This document shows, one piece after another, positions 18,193-49,341 of a stretch of 64,000 nucleotides of DNA. The notes under the pieces are model-generated. The model saw nothing but the letters and a program-made list of their open reading frames with translations, did no database searches and was not told the origin of the DNA. Source of the DNA: a virus; the IMG/VR virus record IMGVR_UViG_3300046535_000869, positions 1 to 64,000 of that record; one strand, 5' to 3'. A program made the translations under genes and the position numbers. How positions within the stretch are numbered: the stretch's first letter is position 1; the number at the start of each line of letters is the position of its first letter.

Positions 18193-19148
18193 ATCATCCT
18201 CACGTACGGCTCGATGGCCCTGAGCACGTCCGGCGGGAGCATCGTCGTGATGTCCGCCCCAGCCAGCCGCCCGGACGCGAACTGCGCCGACCAGTCGCCG
18301 ATGTGCTCGGAGACCACCTCCGGGTCGTGCGGGTTGACCTTCCGCAGATACCAGTTCTTGACCGCCTCGACGACGCAGCGTTCGAGCGTCGACGGAAGCG
18401 TCGCGACCTCCACGGACGACCCGCCAGGCGCGGTCTCGTCGGTCAGTAGCCCGTTCAGGACGATGGTCTCGTCGGTGCGCTCGCGCACAATGAACCGGCC
18501 GTTGTTCTTGCGGTTCGCGAACCCGCGCAGCCGGACGATCTCGCCAGGAACCACCAGTGGCATGACCGGCGCGTCGTCGATGGCCGTCAGCACGCTCGTC
18601 CCGCTGGCCGTGATGGCTGCGACCGAATAGCCGGAGGCGACGATGTCGTCGTTGTGCGTGAGGTAGCCGCCGACGTAGGTCGCCTGCCAGGGAGCGCGCC
18701 CGTCCTGCTCCAGGCGGTCGACCGCCAGCCAGACGTGAATCGGCGCGTTGTCCGGCCAGCCAGACTCCCTGAAGACGATCCCAGCCTCGGCGTTGTGGAT
18801 GAAGATCCGGTCCAGGTTCAGGTTCGAGTTGTCGGCGTTGTTCTTGTCGTAGACGACGCCCGCGTCGCTGTGCTCGACCAGCTCGATGGACATGATCGGC
18901 GTCGTCTCTAGCAGCACGTTCGTCCGGCCGGTCCCGCTGAACCGCTCCTTGACTCGCTGCCGCAGGATGTATGGCCGGTCGATGTACTCCGTGATGGCCG
19001 CGCTCGCATCGGCGATCCGGTCTTCGAGCCAGGCGTCGCGCGCCGCGTCTGTGTCCGTCAGGTTCAGGTTCGCCTTCACGGTGTCCAGCGTCGCGAACGC
19101 CTCCGACTGAGGCGGGTAGAGGACCGTCACCAGGCCAGTGATACTCAT
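18189..19148 (-). CDS. Head-tail adaptor (gp6-like) with inserted domain
   Basis: ATLDTVKANL...ASAAITEYIDR...TYVGGY...SEHIGDWS...LPPDVLRAIEPY. Confidence 0.8.
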   Translation of the reverse strand: MSITGLVTVLYPPQSEAFATLDTVKANLNLTDTDAARDAWLEDRIADASAAITEYIDRPYILRQRVKERFSGTGRTNVLLETTPIMSIELVEHSDAGVVYDKNNADNSNLNLDRIFIHNAEAGIVFRESGWPDNAPIHVWLAVDRLEQDGRAPWQATYVGGYLTHNDDIVASGYSVAAITASGTSVLTAIDDAPVMPLVVPGEIVRLRGFANRKNNGRFIVRERTDETIVLNGLLTDETAPGGSSVEVATLPSTLERCVVEAVKNWYLRKVNPHDPEVVSEHIGDWSAQFASGRLAGADITTMLPPDVLRAIEPYVRMM

Positions 19149-20353
19149 GCGATGGCGACCTCCGTTGGGACATCCAGGTGCAGCTCGTCGCCGCCCGTCT
19201 CCAGCGCCAGCTCAAACTTCTTCGCCACGTTCTCCCAGGTGAACTCCGGCCGGTGGACCCGGTCGTAGCCTGCCTGGCCGAGCGCGACCCGCGTCGCCTT
19301 ATCTCCGTAGAGCTTGTCCAGCGCCTGGAGCATCAGCTCCTTGTCCGCCAGCCCGCCGATGACGTTCACGTCGTTCACGGTCGCCGCCGTCGACGTGCAG
19401 GGAACCTTCAGCACCGCGTCGCCTGGCCACTCGCCGAGCGCCGCCCAGTCCGGCACGATCTGCGGAATGCCGCAGGCCATCGCCTCCATCGTCGGGAGGC
19501 CCCAACCCTCGCCCTGGGTCGTGGTCATCATCGCGTCGAAGCAGTTGTAGATGCCCGCCAGGTACTGCTCCGAGACGCCGACGCCGGGAACCATCTTTGA
19601 GCTGGTGATAATCAGCTTGTTCCCGATGCCGTAGTAGTCGCAGAGCTGACGCACGTCCCAGCCCTTGTCGCCGGTCGGAGCCAGGTGCAGGTAGAGGTAG
19701 GCGTTGTCGATGCGCCTGGTCTTCACCCACTCGGCGAAGTACGCGATGGTCAGGTCCAGCCGCTTCCGAGGCTGGTTCCGGTTGATGTTGCCGACGATAA
19801 ATAGGTCCTCGCCGAGCCGCTTCGTGATACCCATCCGCTCGCGGGTCGCCGCCCGGTCCATCGGGCGGTAGATGCTGGTGTCGACGCCGTGCGGGATGAT
19901 GGTCGCCTTCCCGGAGTAGCCGCCCTTGCGGGCCTCGTCCAGGCCGAACTGCGTGTAGAAGATCGCCAGGCTCAGCCCGTTCAGCTCTCGGCCCTGGCAG
20001 TTCTTCCCGTCAACCGGCATGTAGGCGACGACCGGGAGCGCCGACGCGAACCGCTGAACGTAGTGCTTGACGTTCCAAGGGTCGTTCATCACCACCAGGA
20101 GGTCCGGCCGGATCTCCTTCAGGAGCGCCGGAACGCGCTGGATGCCGAAGGCGTCTCCGCCTCCTGCCGCCGGGTAGACCGCGTACGGGTGTGGCCCCTT
20201 ACAGGTCGGCCCATGCGGGTCGCCGAAGTAGTTGATGCCCAGAACGCTCACGTCCGCGACCGCGCCGAGAGGCGTGCAGACGTTCCGCGTCACGCGCGCG
20301 AACCCGGTCTCGATGCAGGCGTCGCCGTTCCAGAGATACTTCCGCTTGCTCAC
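19145..20353 (-). CDS. GT4-family (GT-B) glycosyltransferase
   Basis: TGFARV, IPHGVD, NRNQPRKRLD, GEGWGLPTMEAMACG. Confidence 0.9.
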   Translation of the reverse strand: MSKRKYLWNGDACIETGFARVTRNVCTPLGAVADVSVLGINYFGDPHGPTCKGPHPYAVYPAAGGGDAFGIQRVPALLKEIRPDLLVVMNDPWNVKHYVQRFASALPVVAYMPVDGKNCQGRELNGLSLAIFYTQFGLDEARKGGYSGKATIIPHGVDTSIYRPMDRAATRERMGITKRLGEDLFIVGNINRNQPRKRLDLTIAYFAEWVKTRRIDNAYLYLHLAPTGDKGWDVRQLCDYYGIGNKLIITSSKMVPGVGVSEQYLAGIYNCFDAMMTTTQGEGWGLPTMEAMACGIPQIVPDWAALGEWPGDAVLKVPCTSTAATVNDVNVIGGLADKELMLQALDKLYGDKATRVALGQAGYDRVHRPEFTWENVAKKFELALETGGDELHLDVPTEVAIA

Positions 20354-24278: not shown

Positions 24279-24279
24279 C

Positions 24280-25371
24280 TCAGTCCCGGTAAATGTGCTC
24301 GACGCCGTCCCGGCTCACGGCCAGCCGTGAGGCCCGGCCCTTCCCGGCCGCTGTGATCTGATGCCACTTGCCGCGCTCGATGAAGACCAGGTCGCCCTTC
24401 TTGACCGTCCGGGTCTGGTCCTCGATGGCGAACTTGTACTCGCCCTCCAGGATGAACCACCACTCGTCCCAGTCGGCGTGGTAGTGCCGCCGGTTCCCCT
24501 CGCCAGGGAGCTGACTGATGATGGTCGCGCTGTTCGACGGCGACTGGACGACCCGCCAGCCGAAGGACTGCCCCGCCGGGAACCGCTTCAGCAGCTCCGG
24601 GATGTTGACCAGCGGAACCGAGCCAGCCAGGTCGTTGGCCGACACGCCGTCGTCGTCCAGGACCTTCCCGGCATCGCACTGTGAGAACGCTGTGGACGTC
24701 CAGTACCGAGGCTTGACCGCGCCCGCGCGCCGCCGCGCGAGGACCAGCTCTGCGTCCTGAAAGTCCTGCTCGGTGTCGATGTCGATGGCCGCGTCGCCAG
24801 ACAGCCGGAGCCGCCGGACCCGCGACCCGAACCCATAGCTCCCGCATTTCTCGAAGGCCCCTCGCCGCCAGCCGAAGATGCCGTTGCAGAAGATCTCGAC
24901 CGGCTCCAGCTTCTGGCTGGGCAGCATCGGGAGCGCCGGGTCGAAGTTGATAGCCGTCTCGCCGAGCATCGTCTCTGCCTGGACCGCCCTCACCGAGACC
25001 ACCACGTCCGCGTCGTCCAGCGCCAGGACGGCTGCGCGCATGTCCTGCGCCGACAGGAACGGCGAGGTCGGCGTGATCTGGAACAGCCGGTTGACCTCCG
25101 GCATCGCCGCCAGGAAGTCCGCGACAAAGTGGTCGGTTGTGGCCTTGTCTCCAGCCAGCTCCGCCGACCGCCGGTAGCTGCTCGCGCCCAGCTCCTCGCC
25201 GAGGTTGAGAATCTCGTCGCTCTCGGAGTTGACGTAGACCTTATCGAACAGCCCGGACTCCCGCGCCGTCTCGACGACCCAGGCCAGGAGAGGCTTGCCG
25301 CCGAGGAAGCGGAGGTTCTTCCGAGGCACGCGCGTGCTGTGCAGGCGGGCCGGAATCATCGCGACCTTCAT
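24280..25371 (-). CDS. Acylneuraminate cytidylyltransferase (NeuA/KdsB-like) fused to a cupin domain
   Basis: IPARLHSTRVPRKNL...GKPLL...TSPF...DIDTEQDF; C-terminal HYHADWDEWW...GKWH cupin. Confidence 0.9.
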   Translation of the reverse strand: MKVAMIPARLHSTRVPRKNLRFLGGKPLLAWVVETARESGLFDKVYVNSESDEILNLGEELGASSYRRSAELAGDKATTDHFVADFLAAMPEVNRLFQITPTSPFLSAQDMRAAVLALDDADVVVSVRAVQAETMLGETAINFDPALPMLPSQKLEPVEIFCNGIFGWRRGAFEKCGSYGFGSRVRRLRLSGDAAIDIDTEQDFQDAELVLARRRAGAVKPRYWTSTAFSQCDAGKVLDDDGVSANDLAGSVPLVNIPELLKRFPAGQSFGWRVVQSPSNSATIISQLPGEGNRRHYHADWDEWWFILEGEYKFAIEDQTRTVKKGDLVFIERGKWHQITAAGKGRASRLAVSRDGVEHIYRD

Positions 25372-25877
25372 CGCGGTCTCCAGAGGACCATCGTGTCCTG
25401 CCGGAACATGACCGGAATCGGCTCAGGCTGCTCGCTCAGGAAGGTGAGCATCGCCAGCGTGACCTTGTCGAAGCTGGTCATCATGTCGTGGCAGACGAGC
25501 GCGTACTTGGTCAGCCGCCAGGCGTTGCGGAGGTCGACGAGCGCCTCGTCGTAGCCGTGATGGCCGTCGACATAGGACAGGTCGACCGGCGCGGTCTCGG
25601 CGGGTATCAGCGACTGCGACGGCCCGTCGAGGAACCGGACCTTCCCGCGATGCCCAGCTTTCTCCAGCAGCTCGACGATGTGTCTGTGGCTCCCGCGCCC
25701 CAGCCCGCCGTGGATGGTTCCCCAGGTGTCACAAAGTGTCAGGTCGATCTCCGGGTTCGCCGCGACGACCGTCCGCACGCAACCGCCCTCGTTGACGCCG
25801 ATGCCAAGGTACGTCTTGGCGCGCGGAGCCAGCTCGTTGAGGATCTCCCAGGAGCAGTGAGAGGCGGGCCAGTTCAC
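25368..25877 (-). CDS. Class I SAM methyltransferase (Methyltransf_24-like)
   Basis: YLGIGVNEG, YVDGHH, LVCHD. Confidence 0.75.
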   Translation of the reverse strand: MNWPASHCSWEILNELAPRAKTYLGIGVNEGGCVRTVVAANPEIDLTLCDTWGTIHGGLGRGSHRHIVELLEKAGHRGKVRFLDGPSQSLIPAETAPVDLSYVDGHHGYDEALVDLRNAWRLTKYALVCHDMMTSFDKVTLAMLTFLSEQPEPIPVMFRQDTMVLWRPR

Positions 25878-26557
25878 GCCGCCCTCCACTTCTGGAGCGC
25901 GACCCAGCCGCCGAACTGCGCGCGCGCCAGGGACTCGTCGTCGAACAGGAAGCCCGCCGCCTCAAGGGCCGAGACTGTCTTGGCACGGTCCTCGCCAGGC
26001 GGGACTTGATGGAATTCGATGAACAGGTGCGTCGCCGAGGCCAGCGCGCCAGGCATCCCGCGTACGGCCGCGTCCTCCGCGCCCTCGATGTCCATCTTGA
26101 TGACATCCGCCCGCCGACCAGACAGCGCCAGGATGGTGTCGAGGCTCTCGCACTCGACCAGGACAGCGTGACCCGCACTGCCGTGTACGGCCCCAGCGAT
26201 GGACATGGACAGCCCAGGCTCCGGTTTGATGAGCCGCATCAGCCCGTCACCAGCGCCGACCGCGACGCAATGCAGGTCGACCCGCTTGTCGTTGAGGTAC
26301 AGCTCGGCCAGCATGTCAGCCCGCTCCCGCTCCGCCTCGATGGCGACGACTACTAGGGTCGGCTTCCCGAACTTCAGCGCCAGGGCCGTGTAGAACCCGT
26401 ACTCCGCGCCCGCGTCAACCACCACGTCGGCCGACCGGACCGCGTCAACGAACGCCTGTGAGTAGGGTTCCCACCGAACGTTGGCCTGCTCCGTCCCGAC
26501 CATTAGGTCATGGCAGATGTCCAGGGTCGCCTTCTGGCCGTAGGTCTTCTCGGTCAC
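25874..26557 (-). CDS. FkbM-family methyltransferase
   Basis: VVDAGAEYGFY, SLD, VIKMDIEGAE, IEFH. Confidence 0.9.
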   Translation of the reverse strand: MTEKTYGQKATLDICHDLMVGTEQANVRWEPYSQAFVDAVRSADVVVDAGAEYGFYTALALKFGKPTLVVVAIEAERERADMLAELYLNDKRVDLHCVAVGAGDGLMRLIKPEPGLSMSIAGAVHGSAGHAVLVECESLDTILALSGRRADVIKMDIEGAEDAAVRGMPGALASATHLFIEFHQVPPGEDRAKTVSALEAAGFLFDDESLARAQFGGWVALQKWRAA

Positions 26558-27108
26558 TTGACCATCTCCGGCATGAAGGAACAGTAGAGCCAGTGGAACA
26601 TCATCATCGCCACGTCCTCGGCGACCGCGTTGCTGTCGGTCTCCAGGTCGATGGTGATGTCCGCCTTCTCCGAGACCGGCCCGCGCTTGCCGACAACCGC
26701 CGCGACGTGCATATTCAGGAACTTCGCGCGCGCGACCGCCTTGGTCAGGTTGGCTGACTTCCCGGACCCGCTGAAGACCACCAGGAGGTCGCCCGGCTCG
26801 CCGAGGGTGTCGAGCTGGGCCGCGAACATATTGTCCGCGCCGAAGTCGTTGACCGCTGAGGACAGCATGAACCCGCTGTTCAAGGAGACCGCCCGCATGC
26901 CAGCGCCAGCCTCGCGCAGCACGTTCAGCGACAGGCCGAGCGCCAGGTGGTCAGTGACCGTGCCGCCGCCGCCGTTGGCCGCTGTGTAGATGGTCCCGCC
27001 ATTGTCGTTGACCCGCTGCACCAGGAGCCGGAGCGCTTCGGCCCGCTCGAACGGGAGCTTCGCCGCCTTCTGGGCAACCGCGTCGACGTACGACCAGCAC
27101 GTCTTCAC
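26554..27108 (-). CDS. SIS-domain sugar-phosphate isomerase (GmhA-like)
   Basis: IYTAANGGG, VNDFG, GDLLVVFSGSGKSANL, AED. Confidence 0.85.
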   Translation of the reverse strand: MKTCWSYVDAVAQKAAKLPFERAEALRLLVQRVNDNGGTIYTAANGGGGTVTDHLALGLSLNVLREAGAGMRAVSLNSGFMLSSAVNDFGADNMFAAQLDTLGEPGDLLVVFSGSGKSANLTKAVARAKFLNMHVAAVVGKRGPVSEKADITIDLETDSNAVAEDVAMMMFHWLYCSFMPEMVK

Positions 27109-27662
27109 GGCTTCCTCCAGGCCCCGATGCCGCCCCAGTCGCCCCTGACGGTCCACTCCAGCTTCTCGCCAGCCAGGCCCGCCCAGTACGCCGGGACGCC
27201 GCCCTTCTCCCAGACCTCGAACGCGCTCGCCGCCGCGTTGATGTCGTGGAAGACGATCCAGCCGCCGGACCGTACCAGCTTCCCGTAGTCGTCCACGTCC
27301 GCCGTGACGCCGTCGAGGCTGTGGTCGCCGTCGATGAACAGCATGTCAACCGGGTCGCCATCGAGCTGCTCGACCACCTTGAGCCAGGTCGCCTTGTGAT
27401 GGCTGTCGCCGGAGATACAGATGACGCCGACCAGGGCCGCGTTCCGCTTGGCGGTCTGGGCCTGGTTCATCCCGGTCGTCGAGCCTTCGATCTTGTCGAC
27501 CGTCACGGTCTTCCCGGACGCGATATTCGACAGGAGCTGCGTGACGCCGCCAGGCCCGGTCCCAATCTCCAGGATGGTCTTCGGCTTGACCTCCTCGGCC
27601 AGCCAGCGCGAGAACGGCTGGATCTCGTCCGGCCATTGGAGCATCGGCAGGGTGACCTTCAT
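27105..27662 (-). CDS. Class I SAM methyltransferase (Methyltransf_24-like)
   Basis: ILEIGT, LFIDGDHS, GGWIVFHDI. Confidence 0.9.
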   Translation of the reverse strand: MKVTLPMLQWPDEIQPFSRWLAEEVKPKTILEIGTGPGGVTQLLSNIASGKTVTVDKIEGSTTGMNQAQTAKRNAALVGVICISGDSHHKATWLKVVEQLDGDPVDMLFIDGDHSLDGVTADVDDYGKLVRSGGWIVFHDINAAASAFEVWEKGGVPAYWAGLAGEKLEWTVRGDWGGIGAWRKP

Positions 27663-28357
27663 GGCTTCACCGTCCGACGCTCAGCGTCCGACCAGGGAGC
27701 CAGCCGCCCGTCGCGAATCGGAGCCAGGGTCAGCTCAGGGTAGACCGCCTCCGGGAGGTTGAACGCCAGCATCCCGCCGGTCCCTGTGCCTGGATGGATA
27801 CTGTCGTACCTGGCCGCGACCGCCGCCCGCTCGGCCCGCGACTTGACGAGGAACTTGTGGTGCTCGATGAGGACCGGCGCTTCAGAGCCGCCGCCGAACG
27901 GCGATCCACAATGGATGCTCGTCCGCCCGCCCGCCATCGCCTTCACGCTCAGGCGCGTCTGGTGGTCCGGGAATAGCTGCGGCGACAGGATGACCCAGCC
28001 AGGCGTCTGCCAGAGGCTCGCGCGGGCGAACTTCCAGTGGTCTGCCGCGAAGTAGCGCTCCTCCGCCAGCCAGTCCGCCATCGCAGGCGAGGCTTTCTCG
28101 TCGTCGTCTAGCCGCAGGATGTACTTGCCGGAGCACTCCGCGACCGCGTAGTCGTGGACCGACTCCAGGTAGCCGTGTGACTGAACCGGGACGATCTTGC
28201 AGGGAAGCTGCCTGGCGAGGTCCTCGGCGTCTTGGCCGTCAGCCGCGATGACGAACTCAGCCCGGCAGCGCTCAGCCAGCGCCGACATGGCGCTGAGGAA
28301 CGGCCAGGCGTGTCGCTCGCCCTTGCTGACGCAGAGGATAGTGAGGTTCGGTTGCAT
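27659..28357 (-). CDS. GT2-like (GT-A) glycosyltransferase
   Basis: CSGKYILRLDDDE (DxD), PDHQTRL. Confidence 0.8.
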   Translation of the reverse strand: MQPNLTILCVSKGERHAWPFLSAMSALAERCRAEFVIAADGQDAEDLARQLPCKIVPVQSHGYLESVHDYAVAECSGKYILRLDDDEKASPAMADWLAEERYFAADHWKFARASLWQTPGWVILSPQLFPDHQTRLSVKAMAGGRTSIHCGSPFGGGSEAPVLIEHHKFLVKSRAERAAVAARYDSIHPGTGTGGMLAFNLPEAVYPELTLAPIRDGRLAPWSDAERRTVKP

Positions 28358-39996: not shown

Positions 39997-39999
39997 CGG

Positions 40000-41787
40000 C
40001 TAGAACTGCTTGATGGCGATGCCTGACGGGAAGTCGACCTCAACGTCCGCGCCGGTCGTGACCAGCGTGAACGGGAAGAACGCGACCGGGACCGACTGCG
40101 TGTCGTCAGCGCTCACGTCCCGGTAGAGCACCATGCCGCCCAGCGTCTGCGCCGTCGTGACCGCCGGGAAGACCGGCGACGTGGCCGACAGCGTCGCGAG
40201 ATCGTTCGTGTCGTCCTCCGCGACGGAACGCCCGGCCATCGTCTGCCGCGTCACGCCTGCCGCCTCCTTGCTCGTCACGTCGCCCGCGCTGCCGTCGTCG
40301 AGCGTCTGAAGATCCGGGTCGAAGACGTACGTCGACAGGACCAGCGTCATCTTGAGTGTCGACGTGTCGAGGTCGAGCGTGCCGATGAGTAGCTCCTTCT
40401 TCGCCCGGTTGTAGAGGTACTGCGCGCTCGCGCCTGCCGGTTGGATCGGCCCAATCCATGCGTAGTTCGTGGCCGCGCCAAGCGTCGGCGGATTTGCCGC
40501 GCCCTTGAGGAGCGTGTTCGTCGGCGTGTAGTCTCCTGTCTCTCCAGTCGCACTCACGTACTGCGGGTCAACGGCGAGATCGTGTGCTCCGGCGCTGATC
40601 GCGCTATATCCGCCAGCCGTGTTGTTGTAGACGTTGTTGAAGTCCATCAAGTGTCCGCCATAGCGGTCATTCGTCGCTGTCGTTCCACCTGAAAGCAGGA
40701 GTCCGTACCCACCATTGTTCGTCAAATTGTTGTTGTTGACGATTGTTCCAGCAGCGGTTTGGACAGACAAAGCTGTATCAGCACAACTGTCGATGACGTT
40801 CCCTGTGATTATCGAGTTAAGCGCAATATCAGAACCTGACCCGGAGTGATCGTGGATAGCTGGCGAGGCTGCGCGACAACGGGTGATGACGTTACTGATG
40901 AACGCGCACCCTTTTGATGTGTCAAAGACAGGCCCACGATAGTTGTCGATGATGTTGCCGACTAACCGAGTAAAATAGAGACCTCCATACAGCGCGTAGT
41001 AGGTTCCGGCTGAAGTGCTTCCAGAATTACGGATGATGTTGTCTGTGAAGGAGACGATTCCAGCTACAAACGTCCCATCGAACCCGTTCTGGTCATAGAT
41101 GCAGCTATCAACGGAAGCGCCGCCGTTCCCTTGGATGAAGCCGTTGTCGGTAAGAAAATTCGTCCCGGTCGGGACCATCTTGAGTTCGCGGAAGATCCAG
41201 CCATTGGCCTGATAGAACATCAACCCATTACAGGTCAGGTAAGGACGCCCGTTGTAGCCGAGTACGGTAATCGGTGCCTCTAATGTTGACCCCAGTAGTT
41301 GGTTGTACCCCGTCTGTGCGACATCAGGCGTACTACCGAGGGCAGGATCGGTACTGCCTCCTGCCGCTCGGACGTTGACGATGTTACCAGCGATGAGAGG
41401 AGAGGCGAGCAGGGGAGCCGTGATCGTTCCGCCGATGGACACATTTCTGAAGTCGGCCCACGCGCCGCCGATGCGCGCCGACTGGCCGGTTCCGGTCCCG
41501 GTGTTTCGGTCGACGCCGATGGTGTTCGTGTTCGTGCGGCTGGTGATGACGTAGTAGCCGTCGCCAGCGATCCGAATCACGTTCCCGATCATCTGCGACG
41601 TGAAGCCGCCAGTGACGGACGTGACCGCGCCGGTCCCGACCGTGACGACGTCCGTCAGGCTGAGTTGTGGACTCGCCTGATCGGAGTAGTTCGTCCCGGC
41701 CCCGCTGATCGTGGAGTCGAAGCCTCCACCGTTCAGCTCGTCACCGTCGACGCGAATCCACCACTGTTGTGAGGCGAGGATCGACAT
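40000..41787 (-). CDS. Beta-helix-containing structural protein
   Basis: PbH1-like Asn-rich repeats (ITGNVID, IVNNNNLTNNGGYG, DFNNVYNN, VDPQY); C-terminal phage structural domain (LYNRAKKELL...LKMTLV). Confidence 0.7.
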   Translation of the reverse strand: MSILASQQWWIRVDGDELNGGGFDSTISGAGTNYSDQASPQLSLTDVVTVGTGAVTSVTGGFTSQMIGNVIRIAGDGYYVITSRTNTNTIGVDRNTGTGTGQSARIGGAWADFRNVSIGGTITAPLLASPLIAGNIVNVRAAGGSTDPALGSTPDVAQTGYNQLLGSTLEAPITVLGYNGRPYLTCNGLMFYQANGWIFRELKMVPTGTNFLTDNGFIQGNGGASVDSCIYDQNGFDGTFVAGIVSFTDNIIRNSGSTSAGTYYALYGGLYFTRLVGNIIDNYRGPVFDTSKGCAFISNVITRCRAASPAIHDHSGSGSDIALNSIITGNVIDSCADTALSVQTAAGTIVNNNNLTNNGGYGLLLSGGTTATNDRYGGHLMDFNNVYNNTAGGYSAISAGAHDLAVDPQYVSATGETGDYTPTNTLLKGAANPPTLGAATNYAWIGPIQPAGASAQYLYNRAKKELLIGTLDLDTSTLKMTLVLSTYVFDPDLQTLDDGSAGDVTSKEAAGVTRQTMAGRSVAEDDTNDLATLSATSPVFPAVTTAQTLGGMVLYRDVSADDTQSVPVAFFPFTLVTTGADVEVDFPSGIAIKQF

Positions 41788-41796
41788 GCCCTTCCC

Positions 41797-43902
41797 TTAC
41801 TGCTTGACGAACGCCTGACAGTTGACGCCGGTCGTGTCTGGGCAGAGTCGGAACAGGTTCTGCGGAACGCCGTCAATCGCCTCCTGCTGAAACAGGCCCG
41901 GCAGCGTCGTGAAGGTGATGACCGGCGGAGGCGGAGGCGGAGGCGCGGTCCCGCCGTTCAGTGGAGACGTCCCGGTCCCATCCCAGAGCACGTCATCGTA
42001 GAGCTTCATCACGAACCGGCGAGGATGCGACCCGTACGGCAGAAACGTCACGCGAGCGAAAGCGGTGTTCGGAGGGAGCGTGATGGTCGGCGTCTCGACG
42101 TAGATATCGAAGAACACGCCGACGGCCCCTTGGACGATAGAATCGGAGACGAGATAGTCGCTATTCGGCACGCCCCAGAGCGCCGTCGTGCAGCCGGACA
42201 GGTACGCGCCTGTGATCTTAATCGGATGCACGTAGCCAGTCGTGATGTCGACACAGCGGCTTCCGTAGTACCGGTCGATGTAGCCCAGCGGCGCGCCATT
42301 ACCGAGGCTGCTCTGCTGGATCACTACAGGGTTACGGAACCAGCCTTCGTTGACGTCTTCCGCCTGACGTGCGCCGATGCCGATGAAGTCGTTGATGCTC
42401 CGCACGTTGTCGAGGACCGGGAGGTGGGCCTCGTCGAAGAAGCGGCCCGGATCTTCAATGCCCCACGTCTCGAAGCCGACGAATCCGTTGCCGACGCTGA
42501 GCGCATGGTCGACCAGTATCGGCGGGTTGTTGTTGGTGTAGGGAGGCGCGAACAGCACGTCCGGCATCGCCCCAGCGACCGACGGATACAGCCCGGACTT
42601 TCCATGAAAGCCGAACAGGTTCCAGCCGACCGTGTTGTTCCAGCATTCGTTCCCGTCGAAGGTGTTCTGGATGCCGTGAAACCAGCCGCACGCGCCCTCG
42701 ACGCCGGGTTTATTGTTCAGGAAGTTGACGCCCGCCTGAATCTCCGACACGTCGGAGAAGTTCGTGAGGTTGGCGAAGCCGATGTTTCTCAGGAAGCTGT
42801 TCCTGACTTCGTAGCCGTCCTCTGTGATGAAGCCCGCGCCTTGGAAGCCGGTCGCGATGTTCTCGACGACGAGCGTGTCCGAGGTGCCGTGCGTGACGTG
42901 GCCCCACTTCCCGCGCCCCTGCCCGATGAGGACCATGTCGACCGTCCGACGCTCGACCGCGCAGCCACCGCCGTGAACATGGTGCGCGTGAAAGGCGTAC
43001 TTCCCGATCTGGTTCGTCCCGATGTGCGATTGGTCCGCCGATGTCGAGTTGAGGTCGTCGACCGTTGTTCGACCGAGGCCGACGAGCGCGCCGCCTTGGA
43101 TGTCCCAGCAGGCCGTATCGCCGATATTGGCGACGTGACCGGCGGTCCCGTTCGCGTTCTCTGACCGGATGACGACGTTGCGCGTGACGTTGAGGATCTT
43201 CGGCCGGATGGCGAGCCGCCCATCGTGCGCGAAGACCGCCGCGTGCGCGAACGACAAACCGCGCGACAGGCCGATGCTCGTCCCGTTGACCGACGTGATG
43301 AACGTGGCAGGCTCGACGATGGGCGAGTCCGGGAAGACCGCCGGGTTCGTGCTGAGCAGCTTGACCTCGTCGCCGACGCGCCATCCGCTCGGCACGCCGC
43401 AGAGGGTGATGAACGAGCTGCCGGGCTGCGCGTCGAAGCACAAGTCCGCGCCCGGCGTCCGGTACGGTTCGTTGATCTTGATGGTGCCGAAGCTGGCGAT
43501 GCCGTTGCCCCACTGGAACGGATCTTGCCCAAGGTCAATCGGCACGTTGCGAATCTGGAGGTCGACGCGCACGCCAGCCGGAATCGGGTCGGCTGGTGTG
43601 CCGAGGTCGAGCGTCCCGCCCGGCAGGATGAGCAGCGTCGTGACCTTCGCTGAGGTATTCGCCGACCGGCTGACCTTCAGCGTCCCGCCGACCTCGATGT
43701 AGTCGAAGACACTGCCGTCCGGGAGCGTGACCGTCTGTCCGGCCGCGACGATGAGCTGCGCCGGGAGGTCGGTGCGCCGCTTGACGAACTCCGACGCGCC
43801 GATGGTGACGCGGTCCGGCTGGACTGTCGCCATGATCATCTGGGCTGAGGCCGTCGAGGCGATGAACAGCGACGCAAGCAGGAAGCGGAATGTCTTACGC
43901 AT
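41797..43902 (-). CDS. Signal-peptide-bearing G8-domain/beta-helix protein (TMEM2/CEMIP/fibrocystin-like architecture)
   Basis: MRKTFRFLLASLFIASTASA; GGTLDLGTPADPI, GWRVGDEV, NVTRNVVIRS, GKYAFHAH, HGTS, FITEDGYE. Confidence 0.8.
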   Translation of the reverse strand: MRKTFRFLLASLFIASTASAQMIMATVQPDRVTIGASEFVKRRTDLPAQLIVAAGQTVTLPDGSVFDYIEVGGTLKVSRSANTSAKVTTLLILPGGTLDLGTPADPIPAGVRVDLQIRNVPIDLGQDPFQWGNGIASFGTIKINEPYRTPGADLCFDAQPGSSFITLCGVPSGWRVGDEVKLLSTNPAVFPDSPIVEPATFITSVNGTSIGLSRGLSFAHAAVFAHDGRLAIRPKILNVTRNVVIRSENANGTAGHVANIGDTACWDIQGGALVGLGRTTVDDLNSTSADQSHIGTNQIGKYAFHAHHVHGGGCAVERRTVDMVLIGQGRGKWGHVTHGTSDTLVVENIATGFQGAGFITEDGYEVRNSFLRNIGFANLTNFSDVSEIQAGVNFLNNKPGVEGACGWFHGIQNTFDGNECWNNTVGWNLFGFHGKSGLYPSVAGAMPDVLFAPPYTNNNPPILVDHALSVGNGFVGFETWGIEDPGRFFDEAHLPVLDNVRSINDFIGIGARQAEDVNEGWFRNPVVIQQSSLGNGAPLGYIDRYYGSRCVDITTGYVHPIKITGAYLSGCTTALWGVPNSDYLVSDSIVQGAVGVFFDIYVETPTITLPPNTAFARVTFLPYGSHPRRFVMKLYDDVLWDGTGTSPLNGGTAPPPPPPPVITFTTLPGLFQQEAIDGVPQNLFRLCPDTTGVNCQAFVKQ

Positions 43903-44611
43903 AAGTGTTCTCCTTGAGGAACTCGTCAAACCGTCCGGCGGTCTGGCCCCAGCCCGGCACGCTGTCGGACTCGGTCCAGCCGTCGGTGTACTTCTGGTTG
44001 CGAAACTCGTCCTTCGACCAGCGCGAAGGCGTCAGGTTCTTGTCGTGTCGGATGTCGATGTTCGGGAGCGCCGACATGCACGCGATGACGTCCAGGTCGT
44101 CGATGCCGCCGTGTCGGATCTTCCGCGTGCCAGGCTCGTAGCCCATACGCTGGGTGAAGCCCTCGCGCTCGACGCGCAGGCAGCGCTGGCGGTAGTGCTC
44201 AGCCAGGAGCAGCCGGTTCGCAAAGAGGCCGCTGGTCTGGTTGCAGAAGTAGAACAGGGCCTTCCCGGAGGCCGCGTCGACCTTCCAGACGTTCTGGTTG
44301 TAGTAGTAGGCGTCGTGACGCCGGACGGACAGGTCGAAGTGGCTGTCGTGATACAGCACGTCGTGCTCGACGAGGAACGCCACGTCGGTGGATATCATCA
44401 GCAGCCCGGCCATGATCTGCTGGAACATCGTGAGCTGGCCAGGCCGCGCGTTCAGGACGACGTTCTTCCAGCCGGTCGGCAGATCGGTCCGCTCCAGCGT
44501 GACCGCGACGATGGGCCGATGGCCGCGCGCCTCGTCGAGCCGACGACGAACCGCCTCCAGGATGGCCGGGTTGCCGCGACCGTGCGAGTAGTACACCAGG
44601 CCGGACGTCAC
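43895..44611 (-). CDS. GT-A-like glycosyltransferase
   Basis: TMFQQIMAGL...VAFLVEHDVLYH (DxD-like), NIDIRH. Confidence 0.65.
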   Translation of the reverse strand: MTSGLVYYSHGRGNPAILEAVRRRLDEARGHRPIVAVTLERTDLPTGWKNVVLNARPGQLTMFQQIMAGLLMISTDVAFLVEHDVLYHDSHFDLSVRRHDAYYYNQNVWKVDAASGKALFYFCNQTSGLFANRLLLAEHYRQRCLRVEREGFTQRMGYEPGTRKIRHGGIDDLDVIACMSALPNIDIRHDKNLTPSRWSKDEFRNQKYTDGWTESDSVPGWGQTAGRFDEFLKENTYA

Positions 44612-45597
44612 GCGACACGCTCCTCGGCTGGGTAGATGAACTCACGGCCCGCCGTGAGCACGGTGTCGAGCGCCGCCTGGCCGACCGGCTCGTGCCAGCC
44701 AGGGATGGGTGCGAACTTCGCAATCAGCCAGGCCAGCGGGAGCCGCTGACCGGCCCAGGCGTTCGTCATCCACAGATGGCGCGAGTAGGCCCGCGCCACG
44801 TCCGGCTGGTTGCCTAGCGGGTATGGGAAGCTGAAGCCGTGCTGGGTCCTGAACAGGTGCGAGTACCAGGTCGACCGGTTGACGACGTGCCGCCCGCCAG
44901 ACAGCCAGCTCTTGCAGGCGATCTCGACGCCGTACTGGCCCCAGCTCCCATGCCGGTTGTCCAGACCGCCGAGCGCGTTGAACCGCGCGCGCTCCATGAA
45001 GAAACACGCCCCTATCGAGGACATCACATCCTGGATCTGGTTGTTATCGCAGCGGGTCTTGTACGCGCCCCAGTACTGGAAGTGGAGGTCGTGGTCGAAC
45101 CGCCAGAAGTCCGTCCGCCGGTTGCCCCGCTTCTGCCAGACCATCACCTTGTCGAAGCCGAGCGTCGACAGGCAGCTCGCGCACTTGTCCAGCGCCGGAC
45201 CCTGGTAGGTCCTGGCCTGGCACGACCGGCACTGCCAGTCGAAGACGTGCAGGTTGAACATCCGAGGAATCTGGGTGACATCCGGGCCGAGCGCCTCCGC
45301 CGCCTCGATGAGCTTCACGTCGAAGCCCTCATCGACGCCGCAATGTGCGTCCAGCTTCATCACATACTTGGCCCGCGACAGCCGAGCGCCCAGGTTGGTC
45401 GCCTCCCGCTGGCCGACCGCCGCGCCAGGCTGCACCACGGTCACGCGAGGATGCGTGTCCAGGGCCTCGACCGGCCAGCCGCCATCGCAGACCGCGATGA
45501 CCTCCGTGGCCGCGCGCGCGTGCGCGAGGATGTCCTCGACCGTGTTCTTGAGGAACGGCTCGTTCCGCGCCGGGATGATGACGCTCAGGTCTAGCAC
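44608..45597 (-). CDS. Polypeptide GalNAc-transferase-like (GT2/GT27-like) glycosyltransferase
   Basis: LSVIIPARNE, MKLDAHC (DxH), GACFFM.R.RF..LGGLD..HGSWGQYGVEIACKSWLSGG...SHLFR; GTG start. Confidence 0.85.
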   Translation of the reverse strand: MLDLSVIIPARNEPFLKNTVEDILAHARAATEVIAVCDGGWPVEALDTHPRVTVVQPGAAVGQREATNLGARLSRAKYVMKLDAHCGVDEGFDVKLIEAAEALGPDVTQIPRMFNLHVFDWQCRSCQARTYQGPALDKCASCLSTLGFDKVMVWQKRGNRRTDFWRFDHDLHFQYWGAYKTRCDNNQIQDVMSSIGACFFMERARFNALGGLDNRHGSWGQYGVEIACKSWLSGGRHVVNRSTWYSHLFRTQHGFSFPYPLGNQPDVARAYSRHLWMTNAWAGQRLPLAWLIAKFAPIPGWHEPVGQAALDTVLTAGREFIYPAEERVA

Positions 45598-45863
45598 GGC
45601 CCGGCCCCCCGCCAGCTCGCCGAGCACTTCCAGCCGGTGCTGTGCATCCTGAACGCCTCGACGACCAGCGGGCCGATCTTCATCCAGACGAACGTGCGGT
45701 CCCGGTAGTACTCGAACCAGCCCCAGTCTTCCGGCCGAATGTAGATCGGGCCGACCCGAACGTCGACGCATAGCCCGCAGGAGTAGCCCTCGCCGTGGCC
45801 TTGTGGGCAGGTTGATGCCTTCGATGGCATCGTATCGCCGGTTTTTGATGCGTCTCGTAGCAT
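45591..45863 (-). CDS. Hypothetical protein
   Basis: TGATG-coupled ORF, Trp/Cys-rich. Confidence 0.45.
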   Translation of the reverse strand: MLRDASKTGDTMPSKASTCPQGHGEGYSCGLCVDVRVGPIYIRPEDWGWFEYYRDRTFVWMKIGPLVVEAFRMHSTGWKCSASWRGAGPC

Positions 45864-46588
45864 CAGCGTCCCACGTCCAGCGGTCCCGGAGCGTTGACCC
45901 AGAGGAAGGACCGATGCTCGTCCCGCTCGACGCCGACCGCCCCGTCCTTCGCTCCGAGGATGAACCACGGTTTGATGTCGTACGCCCGCGTGAAGGCGTC
46001 GACGACGAGCTGCACATGCAGCCCCGCGCCAGGCTTGCTGCCGTAGTAGTCGTGGCCCGCGATGATGCCGCCGAACCGGACCTTCCGCGACCACTCGACG
46101 ATGTCGTTCGTGACGTTCTGGAAGTTGTGATGCCCGTCGATGTAGACGAAGTCCAGCGACCGGTCCGGCACGCCGCGCACCGCCTCCATGCTCCGGGAGA
46201 CCGCCAGCGCCGCGTACTTGTAGGGAGCCAGCCGCTTGGAGGCCAGCCGGTGATAGTTGTCGAAGACCGTCTGGTTCCGCTTCTGGTCCCGGTAGTCGTC
46301 CCGGAGGTTGTACGGATCGACGCCTGTGTAGTGGAGCTGTGGGTTTGCCGCCAGGAGCACCTCGGCGAACTCGCCCTCCATGACGCCGATCTCGACGCCC
46401 CGGTTGAAGTTGTATCGCCAGAAGAACCTCGCCAGCTCCTTCCGGGTCGATGGGATGACGACCGGGTGCCTGGCGTCCGGCGGACCGTCGCCGTCTCGGC
46501 CCAGCGCCGGGAGGCGGAAGAACTCGGCGAGCTGGTCGAGCGTCTCCGCCTGGGCCGTCGCAGGTCTATTGTCCACTGCTGAGGTCAT
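45863..46588 (-). CDS. Class I SAM methyltransferase (Methyltransf_24-like)
   Basis: GVEIGVMEG, LDFVYIDGHH, GGIIAGHDY. Confidence 0.9.
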   Translation of the reverse strand: MTSAVDNRPATAQAETLDQLAEFFRLPALGRDGDGPPDARHPVVIPSTRKELARFFWRYNFNRGVEIGVMEGEFAEVLLAANPQLHYTGVDPYNLRDDYRDQKRNQTVFDNYHRLASKRLAPYKYAALAVSRSMEAVRGVPDRSLDFVYIDGHHNFQNVTNDIVEWSRKVRFGGIIAGHDYYGSKPGAGLHVQLVVDAFTRAYDIKPWFILGAKDGAVGVERDEHRSFLWVNAPGPLDVGR

Positions 46589-47442
46589 AGCACCCTTTCC
46601 CAGAAGCCTCGGCAGATGCGAGGCCAGTTGAACCGCGCCGCCCCTTCGTCAATCTCTGCCTGGCTGACCGGAACCGGCTTCCGGCTCAGGGTGTCCTGGA
46701 GCCAGTCGGTCACCTCTGGCCGGGACAGCTCCGGGACGAAGATGGCCAGCCCGTCGTACCAGGTGCGGTAGTGTGGCCGGTTGAACACAATCGGCCTGGC
46801 CCCGCAGAGCAGGCCCTCCGCCGCCGGTAGCTCGAAGCCCTCGACCCGACGCAGCCCCGACACGTACTCGGCCGAGCTGTACAGCCCAGCTACTACCTCG
46901 TCGGAGACATCAGTATGGCAGACTACGCCGCTCCGGCGAAGGTTCGGACCGAGATGTGCTACGGTTTTCCCATTTGCCCAGGCTGCGCGCGCGCACTCCT
47001 TGACACTTTCTGTCAGCCAGGACTGGCCGGTCGTGACGATGCCGAAGGTCCGGTCCGTGCCTCGTGGGTAGAAGACCGCCGGGTCGACGCCCAGGGCCGA
47101 GTGATAGAACGGGAACTCGACCTGGAGCGCGTCTTCGAGGAGCAGCTCCTTGAGGTTGTAGTAGGACCAGACCAGCTTCGCCCCGGCCCAGAGGCGCAGC
47201 CAGGCGTCCGTCCTCGGCTTCTGGGTCGACCTCACGGCATACTGGATGACGGCGTACTTGCCGGTCTTCTTGATGAGGCCCGCCTGCTCGGTGAACTGCT
47301 CGACCCGCCCGTTGACGTGGAGGATGGTCAGCCGGGCCTGCTCAGGCCCGACCCAGGTGACGCAGCTCGGCGCGGAGCGCTTGAGCGCCTCGCTGACCCG
47401 TTTCATCGCCCGGTCGTCTGGTGTGACCATGTGGACCCGCAC
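46585..47442 (-). CDS. GT-B glycosyltransferase (paralog of 20350..21246)
   Basis: EGFELPAAEGLLCGARPI. Confidence 0.8.
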   Translation of the reverse strand: MRVHMVTPDDRAMKRVSEALKRSAPSCVTWVGPEQARLTILHVNGRVEQFTEQAGLIKKTGKYAVIQYAVRSTQKPRTDAWLRLWAGAKLVWSYYNLKELLLEDALQVEFPFYHSALGVDPAVFYPRGTDRTFGIVTTGQSWLTESVKECARAAWANGKTVAHLGPNLRRSGVVCHTDVSDEVVAGLYSSAEYVSGLRRVEGFELPAAEGLLCGARPIVFNRPHYRTWYDGLAIFVPELSRPEVTDWLQDTLSRKPVPVSQAEIDEGAARFNWPRICRGFWERVL

Positions 47443-48017
47443 TACCCGATCTCCGCGATAATGGCCGGGTTCCAGACCACGTTGCGCCGAGGCCAGGTCC
47501 AGGAATTCATAAAGTCGAAGTCGCCCTCGAACCGATGGCCGAACGTGCTCAGCCGATCCGGGATGTTCGGGACCAGCATCATCGGCGTCCCGACGTTGCC
47601 GTTCCGTAGGTCCTGGTCGGCCCAGAGGACCCGCCCATCCGCCCGGTAGCGCATGCGGAACAGGACCGGGAACAGCCGCCGCCGCCCGATGAGGCCCGCG
47701 ATGGCGTCCGCCTGGTGCGACCGATGGCCCTTGACGTAGGTGTCGTCGTCGTCCATGAACGCCAGCCAGCCGCCCCTCGCCTGCGGGAGCGCCGCGTTGC
47801 GCTCGGTGTGGCCCCAGTCGCCCGCCGGAGGCTTCCCGCGCGCGAGGAGGATCTCATCGCCAGGCCAGAGGTCGATGGACGCCAGGGTCGCCGCCAGGCT
47901 CTCCCGGCCGGTCGTCGCGACGATGAAGCTGATGCTGGTCGACCGGAGCGCCCGGTCGTCGGCCGTGATGCGCTCGACCACCACCTCGACGTCCTTGCCC
48001 TTCCGTGGCCCCTTCAT
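47442..48017 (-). CDS. Short GT2-like (GT-A) glycosyltransferase
   Basis: ISFIVATTGR, RNAAL..ARGGWLAFMDDDD, EGDFDF. Confidence 0.8.
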   Translation of the reverse strand: MKGPRKGKDVEVVVERITADDRALRSTSISFIVATTGRESLAATLASIDLWPGDEILLARGKPPAGDWGHTERNAALPQARGGWLAFMDDDDTYVKGHRSHQADAIAGLIGRRRLFPVLFRMRYRADGRVLWADQDLRNGNVGTPMMLVPNIPDRLSTFGHRFEGDFDFMNSWTWPRRNVVWNPAIIAEIG

Positions 48018-48127
48018 CGCGGCCCTCGGTAGACGACAAGGAGCAGGATGGCCGTCGTGACCGCCACGGCAATCGCGCCAGCCGCCAGCACGTACTTGAG
48101 GACGACCAGCCCTGTTGCCAGCGTCAC
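48014..48127 (-). CDS. 37-aa single-TM membrane peptide
   Basis: GTGA/ATGA coupling on both sides; MTLATGLVVLKYVLAAGAIAVAVTTAILLLVVYRGPR. Confidence 0.6.
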   Translation of the reverse strand: MTLATGLVVLKYVLAAGAIAVAVTTAILLLVVYRGPR

Positions 48128-49341
48128 AGGTAGCCCAACCTCAATGACTTGCGCTCCAGCGTGACCGCGACGCCCGGCTTGCCGTCGTGGTACGTGACCC
48201 AGAGCCGCTTCCGCTGGCCCGGATAGACAGGCCCGACGCCCAGGGCCTCGTTCGTGACCGTCAGGTCCAACCGAGCGCCATCTTTGACCGCCGCCCGGAC
48301 CACGTCCGCGACGTCGACCGTCTCCGCCTCCGACACGCCGTACCGCGCCGACAGGATGGTGAGGCCAGTAGGTTCTGGTGCTGCGCCGCCGGTAGGTTTT
48401 GCCGCCGACATCGCCGCCGCCGGAGTGTCGCCCAGGTAGCCGCGCGCGGCCCGGAACGCCTCGTCGAGGTCGGTCGGCCAGGATGGCACGCTTCCTGATT
48501 GCGCCGAGAACTTCTCAATCAGCCAGCGAAGGTCGTGAACCCGCCCGGCCCACTGGTCGAGCATCCAGTGCCGAACACACCACGCCGAGCCGAGCTTCAG
48601 CTCCCGCTTGTCGATGAAGTAGCCGCGCCCATGTTGCGGCCCCTTATGGAGATGCGCGTACCAGGTGCGCTTCGTGACCGCGACGTGTCCGCCGCCGAGC
48701 CACGTCTTGAGGCCCAGCTCCTGGAACTCCTGGATGAACGTCCCGTAGGTCGCCGGGTTGTCGTCCAGCCCGCCCAGCCAGTCGAAATGCCGCCGGTCCA
48801 TCACCCAGCACGAACCCTGGCTCGACATCTCGTCGTCGACCTCGTACGCCGGGTTGCCCAGCCGCGCCTTGATGCGCTCGTTCCAGATGGTGCCGTGCAG
48901 CCCGCACTTCGGGTCGTTCGGCCGCGCAAACGGGTAGCTCAGGTAGTGGTAGTCGACGTCCAGCTTGCCGACATCCTGGATGGCCCAGGCGTCCGCATCG
49001 AGCCGCTTGCGCCGAGGAACCAGGATGCTGTGGTCGTCCGGGAGGTCCCGCTGAACCTGCTCGTCGAAGCCAGGCGCGACCATACAATGGGCGTCCAGCT
49101 TCATCAGCACGTCCGCCGAGGCCATCGCCACGCCGTCGTTAATCCCGGCCCGCATGCCGCCCGCTGTGCCTTTATGGAGGACCTTGACGCGCGGGTCGGC
49201 CGGGAGGGGCGTCTCCGGCCAGTAGCCGTCGAGGACGGCGATGACCTCGATGTCACCAGTAGCCTTCTCCAGCAGATCCTGGACGGTACGGCCGAGGAAC
49301 TTCTCGCCGCGTGACGGGAGGATAATACTCAGCTTCGCCAT
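48124..49341 (-). CDS. Polypeptide GalNAc-transferase-like enzyme with C-terminal SUEL/DUF3395-like lectin domain
   Basis: LSIILPSRGE, MKLDAHC, GSCWVM, LGGLDD, ELGLKTWLGGG, WYAHLHK; C-terminal ILSARYG...DV...VTNEALG..VYPGQRKRLWVTY. Confidence 0.85.
   Translation of the reverse strand: MAKLSIILPSRGEKFLGRTVQDLLEKATGDIEVIAVLDGYWPETPLPADPRVKVLHKGTAGGMRAGINDGVAMASADVLMKLDAHCMVAPGFDEQVQRDLPDDHSILVPRRKRLDADAWAIQDVGKLDVDYHYLSYPFARPNDPKCGLHGTIWNERIKARLGNPAYEVDDEMSSQGSCWVMDRRHFDWLGGLDDNPATYGTFIQEFQELGLKTWLGGGHVAVTKRTWYAHLHKGPQHGRGYFIDKRELKLGSAWCVRHWMLDQWAGRVHDLRWLIEKFSAQSGSVPSWPTDLDEAFRAARGYLGDTPAAAMSAAKPTGGAAPEPTGLTILSARYGVSEAETVDVADVVRAAVKDGARLDLTVTNEALGVGPVYPGQRKRLWVTYHDGKPGVAVTLERKSLRLGYL

Follow-up and report, generated by a model that had tools for sequence, protein, structure and literature searches.

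The 64,000-nucleotide stretch of DNA analysed here (the window) is the first 64 kb of IMG/VR record IMGVR_UViG_3300046535_000869, a 102,082-bp record rated 100% complete that derives from an uncultivated soil phage. The GC content of the window is 65%, nearly all of its genes lie on the minus strand, and no tRNA genes were found in it. Its virion region contains two enzyme islands (island 1, 43895-49341 (-), genes A1-A6; island 2, 19145-28357 (-), genes C1-C12) and, co-oriented downstream of island 1, a gene for a 1,409-residue protein (referred to as R) largely made up of a repeat in which every second residue is Ser. In the direction of transcription, the order is a portal/Mu-F gene (49770-52166), island 1 (49341-43895), two beta-helix proteins, R (39996-35767), small genes, a prohead protease/AAA+ ATPase fusion, an HK97-type capsid gene (30270-29050), island 2 (28357-19145), a head-tail connector, a tail tube, a tape measure (15817-11237), and five tail-tip-module genes, two of which carry the repeat; both islands are thus placed among portal, capsid and connector genes. 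A preliminary description of this DNA had listed both islands, nine glycosyltransferase (GT)-like genes, four S-adenosylmethionine (SAM)-dependent methyltransferases, the repeat protein, and the same repeat in two tail genes. All of these genes are present: seven of the GT-like genes are reasonably supported and two (A2 and C1) weak, and the methyltransferases are A4, C2, C4, and C5.

Island 1 is a copy of a conserved four-part cassette that consists of A1 and A5 (both GT27-like), A6 (GT-A) and A4 (methyltransferase). A1 (48124..49341 (-)) is a soluble GT27-like glycosyltransferase of 405 amino acids (aa) that matches Pfam Glycos_transf_2 (E=1.5e-11). Its catalytic domain occupies residues 1-300, for which the AlphaFold2 (AF2) model has a predicted local distance difference test (pLDDT) score >90. 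The remaining ~100 residues at the C-terminus were considered as a possible "lectin-like" domain; the model there is of low confidence (pLDDT <50 at residues 314-405) and the region is not conserved in homologues. A5 (44608..45597 (-)) is a second soluble GT27-like glycosyltransferase, of 329 aa (Glycos_transf_2, E=3.7e-12), and is distinguished by a CxxC...CxxC insertion at residues 123-142, in which C123, C139, and C142 are at least 93% conserved. GalNAc-transferases do not have such an insertion, which is probably a zinc ribbon in the A5-type GTs. Between the stop codon of A4 and the homologue-supported GTG start of A5 lie 265 nt (45598-45862) that are open in the A5 frame (ORF, open reading frame, up to 46017), and may be either an N-terminal extension of A5 or non-coding.

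The third GT of the cassette, A6 (43895..44611 (-)), is predicted with a pLDDT of 96.3 to have the GT-A fold of nucleotide-diphospho-sugar transferases. It has no match to any hidden Markov model (HMM), a sequence search against PDB gave one weak and irrelevant match, and its placement comes from fold searches only: Foldseek matched the model to B4GALNT1 and alpha-1,3-GalT at E ~1e-5, and VIA-align matched it to TarS as well as chondroitin and heparosan synthases (Z ~13). The sequence contains an E-x-D motif in which E82 and D84 are invariant. In most other phages an A5-type enzyme and the A6 GT-A domain form a single ORF of 526-603 aa (up to 715 aa), which argues that A5 and A6 act on the same product. 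The fourth part, A4 (45863..46588 (-)), is a SAM methyltransferase (Methyltransf_24, Pfam E=3.4e-14) with a homologue in most cassette loci, and belongs to the conserved core. The other two genes of the island are A3 (46585..47442 (-)), which is GT-B-like and a paralogue of C11 in island 2 (41% identity, E=7e-65), and A2 (47442..48017 (-)), a small protein tentatively assigned a weak GT2-like motif (Pfam GT2 E=1.7e-3 over 27 residues; PHROG glycosyltransferase E=1.8e-3). A3 has no Pfam HMM match and matches PHROG glycosyltransferases weakly; its homologues are found within the cassettes of loci L012, L013, L024, L030, and L032. None of the cassette enzymes has a transmembrane segment or a signal peptide, and the highest Kyte-Doolittle mean over 19 residues is 1.18 in A1 and 0.91 in A5, neither of which has a hydrophobic segment.

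GT27 enzymes, the polypeptide GalNAc-transferases (ppGalNAc-Ts), transfer GalNAc to Ser/Thr in Pro-rich tandem repeats. By both sequence profile and predicted fold, they are the closest solved relatives of A1 and A5. A profile of the A1 family (41 sequences) searched against PDB had ppGalNAc-Ts as its six best matches, at about E=1e-12 and over profile positions 3-259 of 289; GT2 enzymes aligned over the first ~100 positions only. With A5, the best 15 phmmer matches in PDB were all ppGalNAc-Ts, and the alignment to GalNAc-T2 (E=1.7e-7) spanned the Gal/GalNAc-T motif and the distal His. When the A1 model was searched with Foldseek, every match listed, down to rank 50, was a GT27 enzyme, and superposition on the GT27 catalytic domain alone gave a template modelling (TM) score of 0.67 with a root-mean-square deviation of 3.2 over 243 columns. 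The catalytic residues are similarly preserved. Among the 41 A1 sequences, D83 and H230 never vary, conservation of H85 and C86 is at least 90%, and E208 and W227 are conserved; among 30 A5 sequences, D83-A84-H85-C86, W219-G220, E225, and H247-x-F249-R250 are all at least 93% conserved. The DAHC motif aligns with DSHC of GalNAc-T2, and the WG...E and H-x-F-R motifs of A5 align with WGGENxE and HVFR of the same enzyme. The metal triad, consisting of D83, H85, and either H230 (A1) or H247 (A5), is thus conserved across both sets.

These results agree with the "ppGalNAc-T-like initiators" of the preliminary description as far as relationship is concerned; initiation by A1 and A5 is itself a prediction from sequence. 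We refer to both as GT27-like rather than as members of GT27, since they have no membrane anchor and no lectin domain (no ricin or lectin Pfam match was obtained in either), A5 carries the CxxC insertion, and A5 is paired or fused with A6. Neither A1 nor A5 had any tblastn match in 50,697 GenBank phage records. In a library of 1.84 billion cluster representatives, the GT27-like family has 496 members at E values up to 1e-30. Some of these representatives (P0010-P0016) reach 970-1,350 aa, with two or three distinct regions that each match the profile, and are multi-domain enzymes with tandem GT27-like units.

The proposed main acceptor, R (35767..39996 (-)), consists of a 235-aa N-terminal domain, a 993-aa Ser-x-Ser array (36313..39291 (-)), and a C-terminal domain of ~180 aa. 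The array is built of SPSAS[VQAK] and SPSV units with one 30-aa interruption, and its 993 residues include 492 Ser, 172 Pro, and 6 Thr, with 480 S-x-S pairs. The GC content at third codon positions (GC3) is 0.84 for the whole gene and 0.93 for each of the flanking domains, and these values together with the in-frame flanking domains ruled out a wrong-frame artefact; R is a real gene. Recent expansion of the repeat at the DNA level was also ruled out, as the units have diverged (matching at only 63-90% in DNA) and all six Ser codons are in use. For the same two reasons, selection must be preserving the Ser-x-Ser pattern in the protein. If extended at ~0.3 nm per residue, the array would span roughly 300 nm. 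No signal peptide, transmembrane segment, or sortase/LPxTG motif was seen in the R sequence. Its terminal domains match no Pfam or PHROG family and do not resemble the globular parts of other array-bearing proteins; the N-terminal domain resembles unannotated viral protein clusters in the ESM Atlas, and the C-terminal domain returned nothing usable. The only relative found for the N-terminal domain (L035:7064-10045 (+), 30% over 126 aa, on a contig of 71% GC) heads a fibre of ~1,000 aa made of Ala/Thr/Gly-rich repeats, with no serine repeats. Head domain and stalk type are exchangeable.

Shorter arrays are present in two further proteins, namely a 1,270-aa tail-tip-module protein (2217..6029 (-)) with a short SPSAS linker (DNA ~5019-5072) and a 225-aa tail-module protein (6030..6707 (-)) with a Ser-x-Ser repeat of ~90 aa (DNA ~6335-6605). 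Both are referred to as tail genes only on account of their position downstream of the tape-measure gene, as neither matched any family.

A search with A1 returned 33 IMG/VR loci (31-51% identity, 33-67% GC), nearly all of which carry A1, A4, A5, and A6 together amid varying surrounding genes. Taking as an array any ORF with at least 40 residues in Ser-x runs, we found an array ORF in 21 of the 29 non-redundant loci vs. 0 of 29 control viral loci (Fisher p=2.6e-9), the controls (0.53 Mb, the same total length) having been fetched with the unrelated island-2 protein C6. In a set of 40 loci, which includes 11 chosen by their SPSAS pattern, the array ORF is no more than two genes from a GT27-like gene in 29 and directly adjacent to it in 17. 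The association also holds from the repeat to the cassette. Among stretches chosen solely by a (SPSASx)x3 DNA pattern, which is strict and undercounts arrays of other unit types, 23 of 80 contain the GTs; at the level of whole records the count is 17 of 49, rising to 16 of 26 for records at least 30% complete and 5 of 7 for those at least 90% complete. Co-occurrence of SPSAS-repeat proteins and DAHC-type GTs, which the preliminary description had put forward as a check, is therefore positive in both directions.

The closest view of this association comes from one capsid lineage (phrog_267-type, 60-100% capsid identity), for which 38 loci had enough downstream DNA. The gene order there is terminase, a 579-aa protein (portal by position), a small protein, a 266-aa protein (scaffold by position), and capsid. 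In 36 of the 38 loci the capsid gene is followed by one for a protein with a 120-aa head domain and a Ser-x-Ser tail of 200-370 aa, and then by the GT cassette; two loci have neither, and none has just one. The two exceptions, L206 and L207 (3300031509_000005 and 3300026509_000101), have a capsid of 62% identity and lack both the repeat protein and the cassette, and could serve as natural "double-minus" comparators. Elsewhere, Ser-x-Ser arrays are joined to many unrelated globular domains. Arrays on unrelated domains, whose pattern is kept through synonymous change, are what one would expect of a portable modification tag. The cassettes of other phages add TOD1/MUCI70-like GTs, UDP-glucose dehydrogenase, NAD-dependent epimerase/dehydratase, RmlD-like enzymes, and further methyltransferases, suggesting that glycans vary from phage to phage.

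Gene content, homology, conserved catalytic residues, A5-A6 fusion, gene order, and co-occurrence are thus established, and from them we infer the relation of enzymes to substrate, the order of steps, the donor sugars, and the location on the virion. In the explanation that we favour, and to which we give somewhat better than an even chance, the island-1 cassette O-glycosylates serine arrays on virion fibres in the cytoplasm. A1 and/or A5 would start the chain on Ser residues of the Ser-x-Ser/SPSAS arrays in the cytoplasm of the infected cell, A6 would add the next sugar, and A4 would attach methyl groups to the glycan. The 993-residue array of R would be the main acceptor, with the shorter arrays of the two tail-module proteins as additional ones, and the particle would thereby acquire mucin-like stalks or linkers coated with glycans. 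We place the modification in the cytoplasm, before or during assembly as for bacterial serine-rich repeat proteins (SRRPs), because the enzymes are soluble. Since the pairing of enzymes and repeat is found in many unrelated uncultivated phages, these phages probably coat their own fibres with sugars.

Island 2 is separate from the cassette and forms a second glycan module, which is independently mobile. In it, C6 (24280..25371 (-)) is a NeuA/PseF-like cytidylyltransferase fused to a cupin (CTP_transf_3 E=6e-27, plus Cupin_2). C6 matches the NCBIfam PseF model at E=5e-28, which is below the equivalog cut-off, and its top PDB matches are synthetases of CMP-Neu5Ac (CMP, cytidine monophosphate) at E=4e-20. 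Immediately upstream at 25368..28357 (-) are C5 (Methyltransf_24), C4 (FkbM methyltransferase), C3 (GmhA-like SIS isomerase), C2 (Methyltransf_24/CmcI), and C1 (GT-A-like, with a DDD motif, weak). Downstream of C6 are C7 (23151..24278 (-)), a class III aminotransferase similar to lysine-epsilon-aminotransferase, and C8 (22711..23289 (-)), a HAD-family protein (HAD_SAK_2 E=3e-25 at residues 48-178) whose true start is probably downstream of its overlap with C7. These are followed by C9 (22028..22714 (-)), an MptE/Maf-like protein that we tentatively regard as a possible CMP-sugar transferase, given its match to PF01973 (E=4.6e-7) with a score of 30.2 bits, below the gathering score of 34.6; its N-terminus also weakly matches the sialyltransferase CstII (38 residues, E=0.035). 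The island ends with C10 (21243-22031 (-)), a radical SAM enzyme with CxxxCxxC, C11 (20350-21273 (-)), which is GT-B-like, and C12 (19145-20392 (-)), a GT4. Island 2 probably makes an aminated, methylated CMP-sugar and transfers it to a head-associated target.

The preliminary description had joined both islands into a single pathway, in which glycans on the serine arrays are started by the GT27-like enzymes, lengthened by the other GTs, and capped with a CMP-activated sugar from island 2. Both islands do lie on the same strand within the head-morphogenesis module, A3 and C11 are paralogous, and a NeuA/PseF-like cytidylyltransferase together with a Maf/CstII-like candidate transferase would suit a terminal acidic sugar. 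The comparative data do not support this single scheme, however, because island 2 and the cassette occur apart elsewhere. Viral contigs of 30-42% GC contain 26 full-length relatives of C6; C7 adjoins nearly all of them, and C3, C9, and C12 are also found at many. Island 2 forms a module of its own in at least 25 other viral contigs, with no Ser-x-Ser ORF at 29 C6-type viral loci and no GT27-like GT in the 23 whole records with an island-2-type module that were searched. Conversely, a CTP_transf_3 gene is present in 0 of 46 other cassette-bearing records. The capping route is also incomplete: no homologue of NeuB/PseI (PF03102) or KdsA (PF00793) was found in the 102-kb genome, although both families were found in control genomes, so that the carbon backbone of the CMP-sugar must come from the host. 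We therefore consider one pathway across both islands unlikely, and favour a cassette that acts on the serine arrays next to an island 2 that would make and transfer a CMP-activated, aminated, and methylated sugar with a host-derived backbone. Its target in this phage may be either the glycans of the serine arrays or another head component.

The fullest counterpart of island 2 is in L310, a 161-kb phage genome that is 93% complete, where C1, C3, C4, C6, C7, C9, C2, C10, and C11 are found in nearly the same order at 38-53% identity. The L310 module also lies inside the head module, directly after the gene for a 1,521-aa repeat protein and before head protease, decoration, and capsid genes. This repeat protein (L310:2605-7170 (+)) consists of repeats of ~24 residues with a consensus around DPEQTS-x-TESLKVVDTV, and may be the acceptor of the island-2-type module.

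Between the GTs of island 1 and R lie two beta-helix genes. B1 (41797..43929 (-)) has G8 and CEMIP-type beta-helix domains by Pfam, and its N-terminus is a classic Sec-type signal peptide, with a basic stretch, a hydrophobic stretch, and then A-S-A; it may be a secreted depolymerase rather than part of the particle. B2 (40000..41787 (-)) is a right-handed beta-helix protein with weak Pfam Beta_helix/NosD matches and a C-terminus that matches phrog_644 (E=9e-14); its stop codon is 3 nt before the start of R. A5, A6, B1, B2, and R all share one orientation, and their reading frames either overlap or are separated by 3-9 nt. A signal-like hydrophobic N-terminus, ending in A-E-A, is also seen in an 896-aa tail-module protein (6707-9397 (-)). 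Exported proteins are unusual within the virion module of a tailed phage.

The head module that contains both islands is marked by the portal/Mu-F gene (49770..52166 (-)), a single ORF of 798 aa in which Pfam identifies a portal protein and, fused to it, a Phage_Mu_F (minor head protein) domain. The major capsid protein (29050..30270 (-)), directly upstream of island 2, is of the HK97 type (Pfam Phage_capsid E=1.4e-29) and is 31-37% identical to capsids of Burkholderia, Rhodobacter, and Marinobacter phages. A single 1,026-aa ORF at 30401-33481 (-) combines a Peptidase_S78 prohead protease (residues 97-197) with a classical AAA ATPase (residues 664-780); relatives of this ORF adjoin the cassettes in L007 and L026. 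Near-identical DNA was not found among the 50,697 GenBank phage records, and no close relatives of the portal and capsid proteins were confirmed in IMG/VR, making a comparison with a sister phage impossible. The DNA of island 1 is present in metagenome runs from rhizosphere and soil, one of which is possibly the source; there are no RNA sequencing runs among those listed.

Several observations weigh against glycosylation of the serine arrays by the cassette. A1 and A5 are only 17-22% identical to GT27 enzymes and lack their lectin domain and membrane anchor, and sequence does not reveal specificity for donor or acceptor. R has no detectable relative among known virion proteins and is placed on the particle by gene position only, and two beta-helix genes, one with a signal peptide, separate it from the GTs. 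The Ser-Pro-rich linkers could be plain spacers. About a quarter of the viral cassette loci have no array within 10 kb, and the co-occurrence counts lack phylogenetic independence. Outside viruses, the A1 family was found in 187 stretches of GTDB species-representative genomes, of which 77 were kept (L233-L309), all from uncultured organisms and nearly all metagenome-assembled genomes (MAGs). They are mostly Patescibacteria, along with Anaerolineae, Planctomycetota, "Gammaproteobacteria" bins, and some archaea, and some may be binned phage. Ser-x-Ser ORFs are nearby in only 17 of these 77 loci; the GT family is therefore not tied to a serine acceptor everywhere, and its cellular versions may use other acceptors.

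Some of these points would suit a different explanation, in which the GTs act on host envelope polysaccharide, lipid-linked sugars, or phage DNA, and the arrays are unmodified flexible linkers that travel with fibre genes. Most phage GTs studied so far do modify DNA or host O-antigen (reviewed in PMC12619734), Ser/Pro-rich linkers are plausible as spacers, the many cellular loci without Ser-x-Ser ORFs show the family in another setting, and a secreted beta-helix enzyme is encoded in the same operon. Nevertheless, the enzymes are soluble with no transmembrane segments, unlike the GtrB-type GTs of seroconversion; there is no gene similar to thymidylate synthase or dCMP hydroxymethylase for DNA modification through hydroxymethyl bases; the closest relatives of the enzymes are protein O-glycosyltransferases; and the adjacency of the arrays and their two-way co-occurrence with the cassette, over genomes of 33-67% GC, are hard to explain without a functional link. 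On these grounds we regard a non-protein target as improbable. That the cassette glycosylates other virion proteins, such as capsid and tail tube, and not the serine arrays, has a precedent in the glycosylated virion proteins identified, according to PMC12363180, for the mycobacteriophages Che8, Corndog, and Myrna, and the cassette does sit among head genes, but we consider it very improbable, as Ser/Thr-rich extensions are missing from the capsid and tube proteins of this phage, no GT of the phage collection that includes those mycobacteriophages is related in sequence to A1 or A5, and the joint gain and loss of arrays and cassette would be left unexplained.

Glycosylation of serine arrays by the cassette, as favoured here, can be extended to a broader hypothesis, which as a whole we find doubtful. 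The soluble GT27-like family of phages and candidate-phyla microbes would be the prokaryotic and viral counterpart of the mucin initiators, and phages would use it, by means of portable Ser-x-Ser tags, to give their capsid decorations, fibres, and tail proteins mucin-like brushes of glycans. The phage described here would add a CMP-sugar module and a stalk of ~300 nm that carries methylated and acidic sugars.

If the favoured explanation is true, tailed phages would have a widespread sugar-coating of the particle that is absent from cultured phages, produced by relatives of the animal mucin initiators acting on a sequence tag that could be attached to any protein of the virion. This would bear on the adsorption of environmental phages, on how they avoid aggregation and non-productive binding, and on their survival in soil and water, as well as on the origin of the GT27 fold family. 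It would also give a concrete reason for the many Ser-Pro-Ser low-complexity tracts in phage structural genes, and provide bacterial glycoengineering with a source of small, soluble, cytoplasmic O-glycosyltransferases that use a simple repeat acceptor.

In the literature searched, viral O-glycosylation is described as the work of host enzymes, and phage GTs as acting on DNA or O-antigen. A 2024 review of the subject leaves phages unmentioned, and our searches of the literature on GT27/GalNAc-T with phage, or on serine repeats with phage glycosylation, returned nothing relevant. In this literature, glycosylation of phage virions is described only for mycobacteriophages (PMC12363180, PMC12619734). 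This literature agrees with the statement in the preliminary description that no phage system combining these parts has been described.

Among known systems, the GT27 enzymes compared (GalNAc-T1, T2, T4, T10, and T12, Drosophila PGANT9, and Toxoplasma GalNAc-T3) share with A1 and A5 the GT-A domain, the DxH motif, a WGxxxxE-like Gal/GalNAc-T motif, and the distal His, and their Pro-rich repeat substrates resemble the proposed acceptor. Unlike A1 and A5, they have a ricin-B lectin domain, in place of which A5 is paired or fused with a second GT-A domain, and are anchored in the Golgi as type II membrane proteins, whereas the phage enzymes are anchorless and predicted to be cytoplasmic. Further differences are that the R array is nearly pure in Ser (6 Thr vs. 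492 Ser) and that the enzymes are encoded by phages and uncultivated prokaryotes.

The SRRPs of Gram-positive bacteria (GspB, Fap1, and SraP) also have very long arrays in which alternate residues are Ser, and receive their glycans in the cytoplasm, from soluble GTs encoded alongside them, ahead of export or assembly; as fibres with a globular tip, they also resemble the proposed phage fibre. However, their glycosylation is initiated by the GT-B pair GtfA/GtfB, whereas the candidate initiators of the phage are GT27-like with a GT-A fold. SRRPs further have a signal peptide, an LPxTG anchor, and SecA2/SecY2, none of which was found here in Pfam and NCBIfam searches of the island proteins or in the R sequence.

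For the mycobacteriophages Che8 (gp110), Corndog (gp38), and Myrna, PMC12363180 (citing Freeman et al., 2023) likewise describes phage-encoded GTs, sometimes accompanied by methyltransferases, that modify proteins of the phage's own particle. Those GTs are unrelated in sequence to A1 and A5, which had no tblastn match among the 50,697 phage records that include them, and the modified sites, as reported in PMC12619734, are the C-termini of capsid and tail-tube subunits, in contrast to the dedicated, kilodalton-scale serine arrays on separate proteins proposed here. For island 2 only, a comparison can be made with the Maf system, in which flagellin is O-glycosylated with CMP-nonulosonic acids (PseF/LegF/NeuA), as in both cases a cytidylyltransferase is near a PF01973 protein, which in island 2 is a candidate. 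The Maf system relies on NeuB/PseI and PseB/C/H/G, none of which is present in island 2; this has instead a class III aminotransferase, a GmhA-like isomerase, a radical SAM enzyme, and methyltransferases.

Overall, the system is best filed as virus-encoded glycosylation of the virus's own particle proteins, mucin-like or SRRP-like in its working. What this phage adds is the largest enzyme set so far, the sole sampled cassette that occurs together with a CMP-sugar module, evidence for the independence of these two modules, and an almost Thr-free array of 993 residues.

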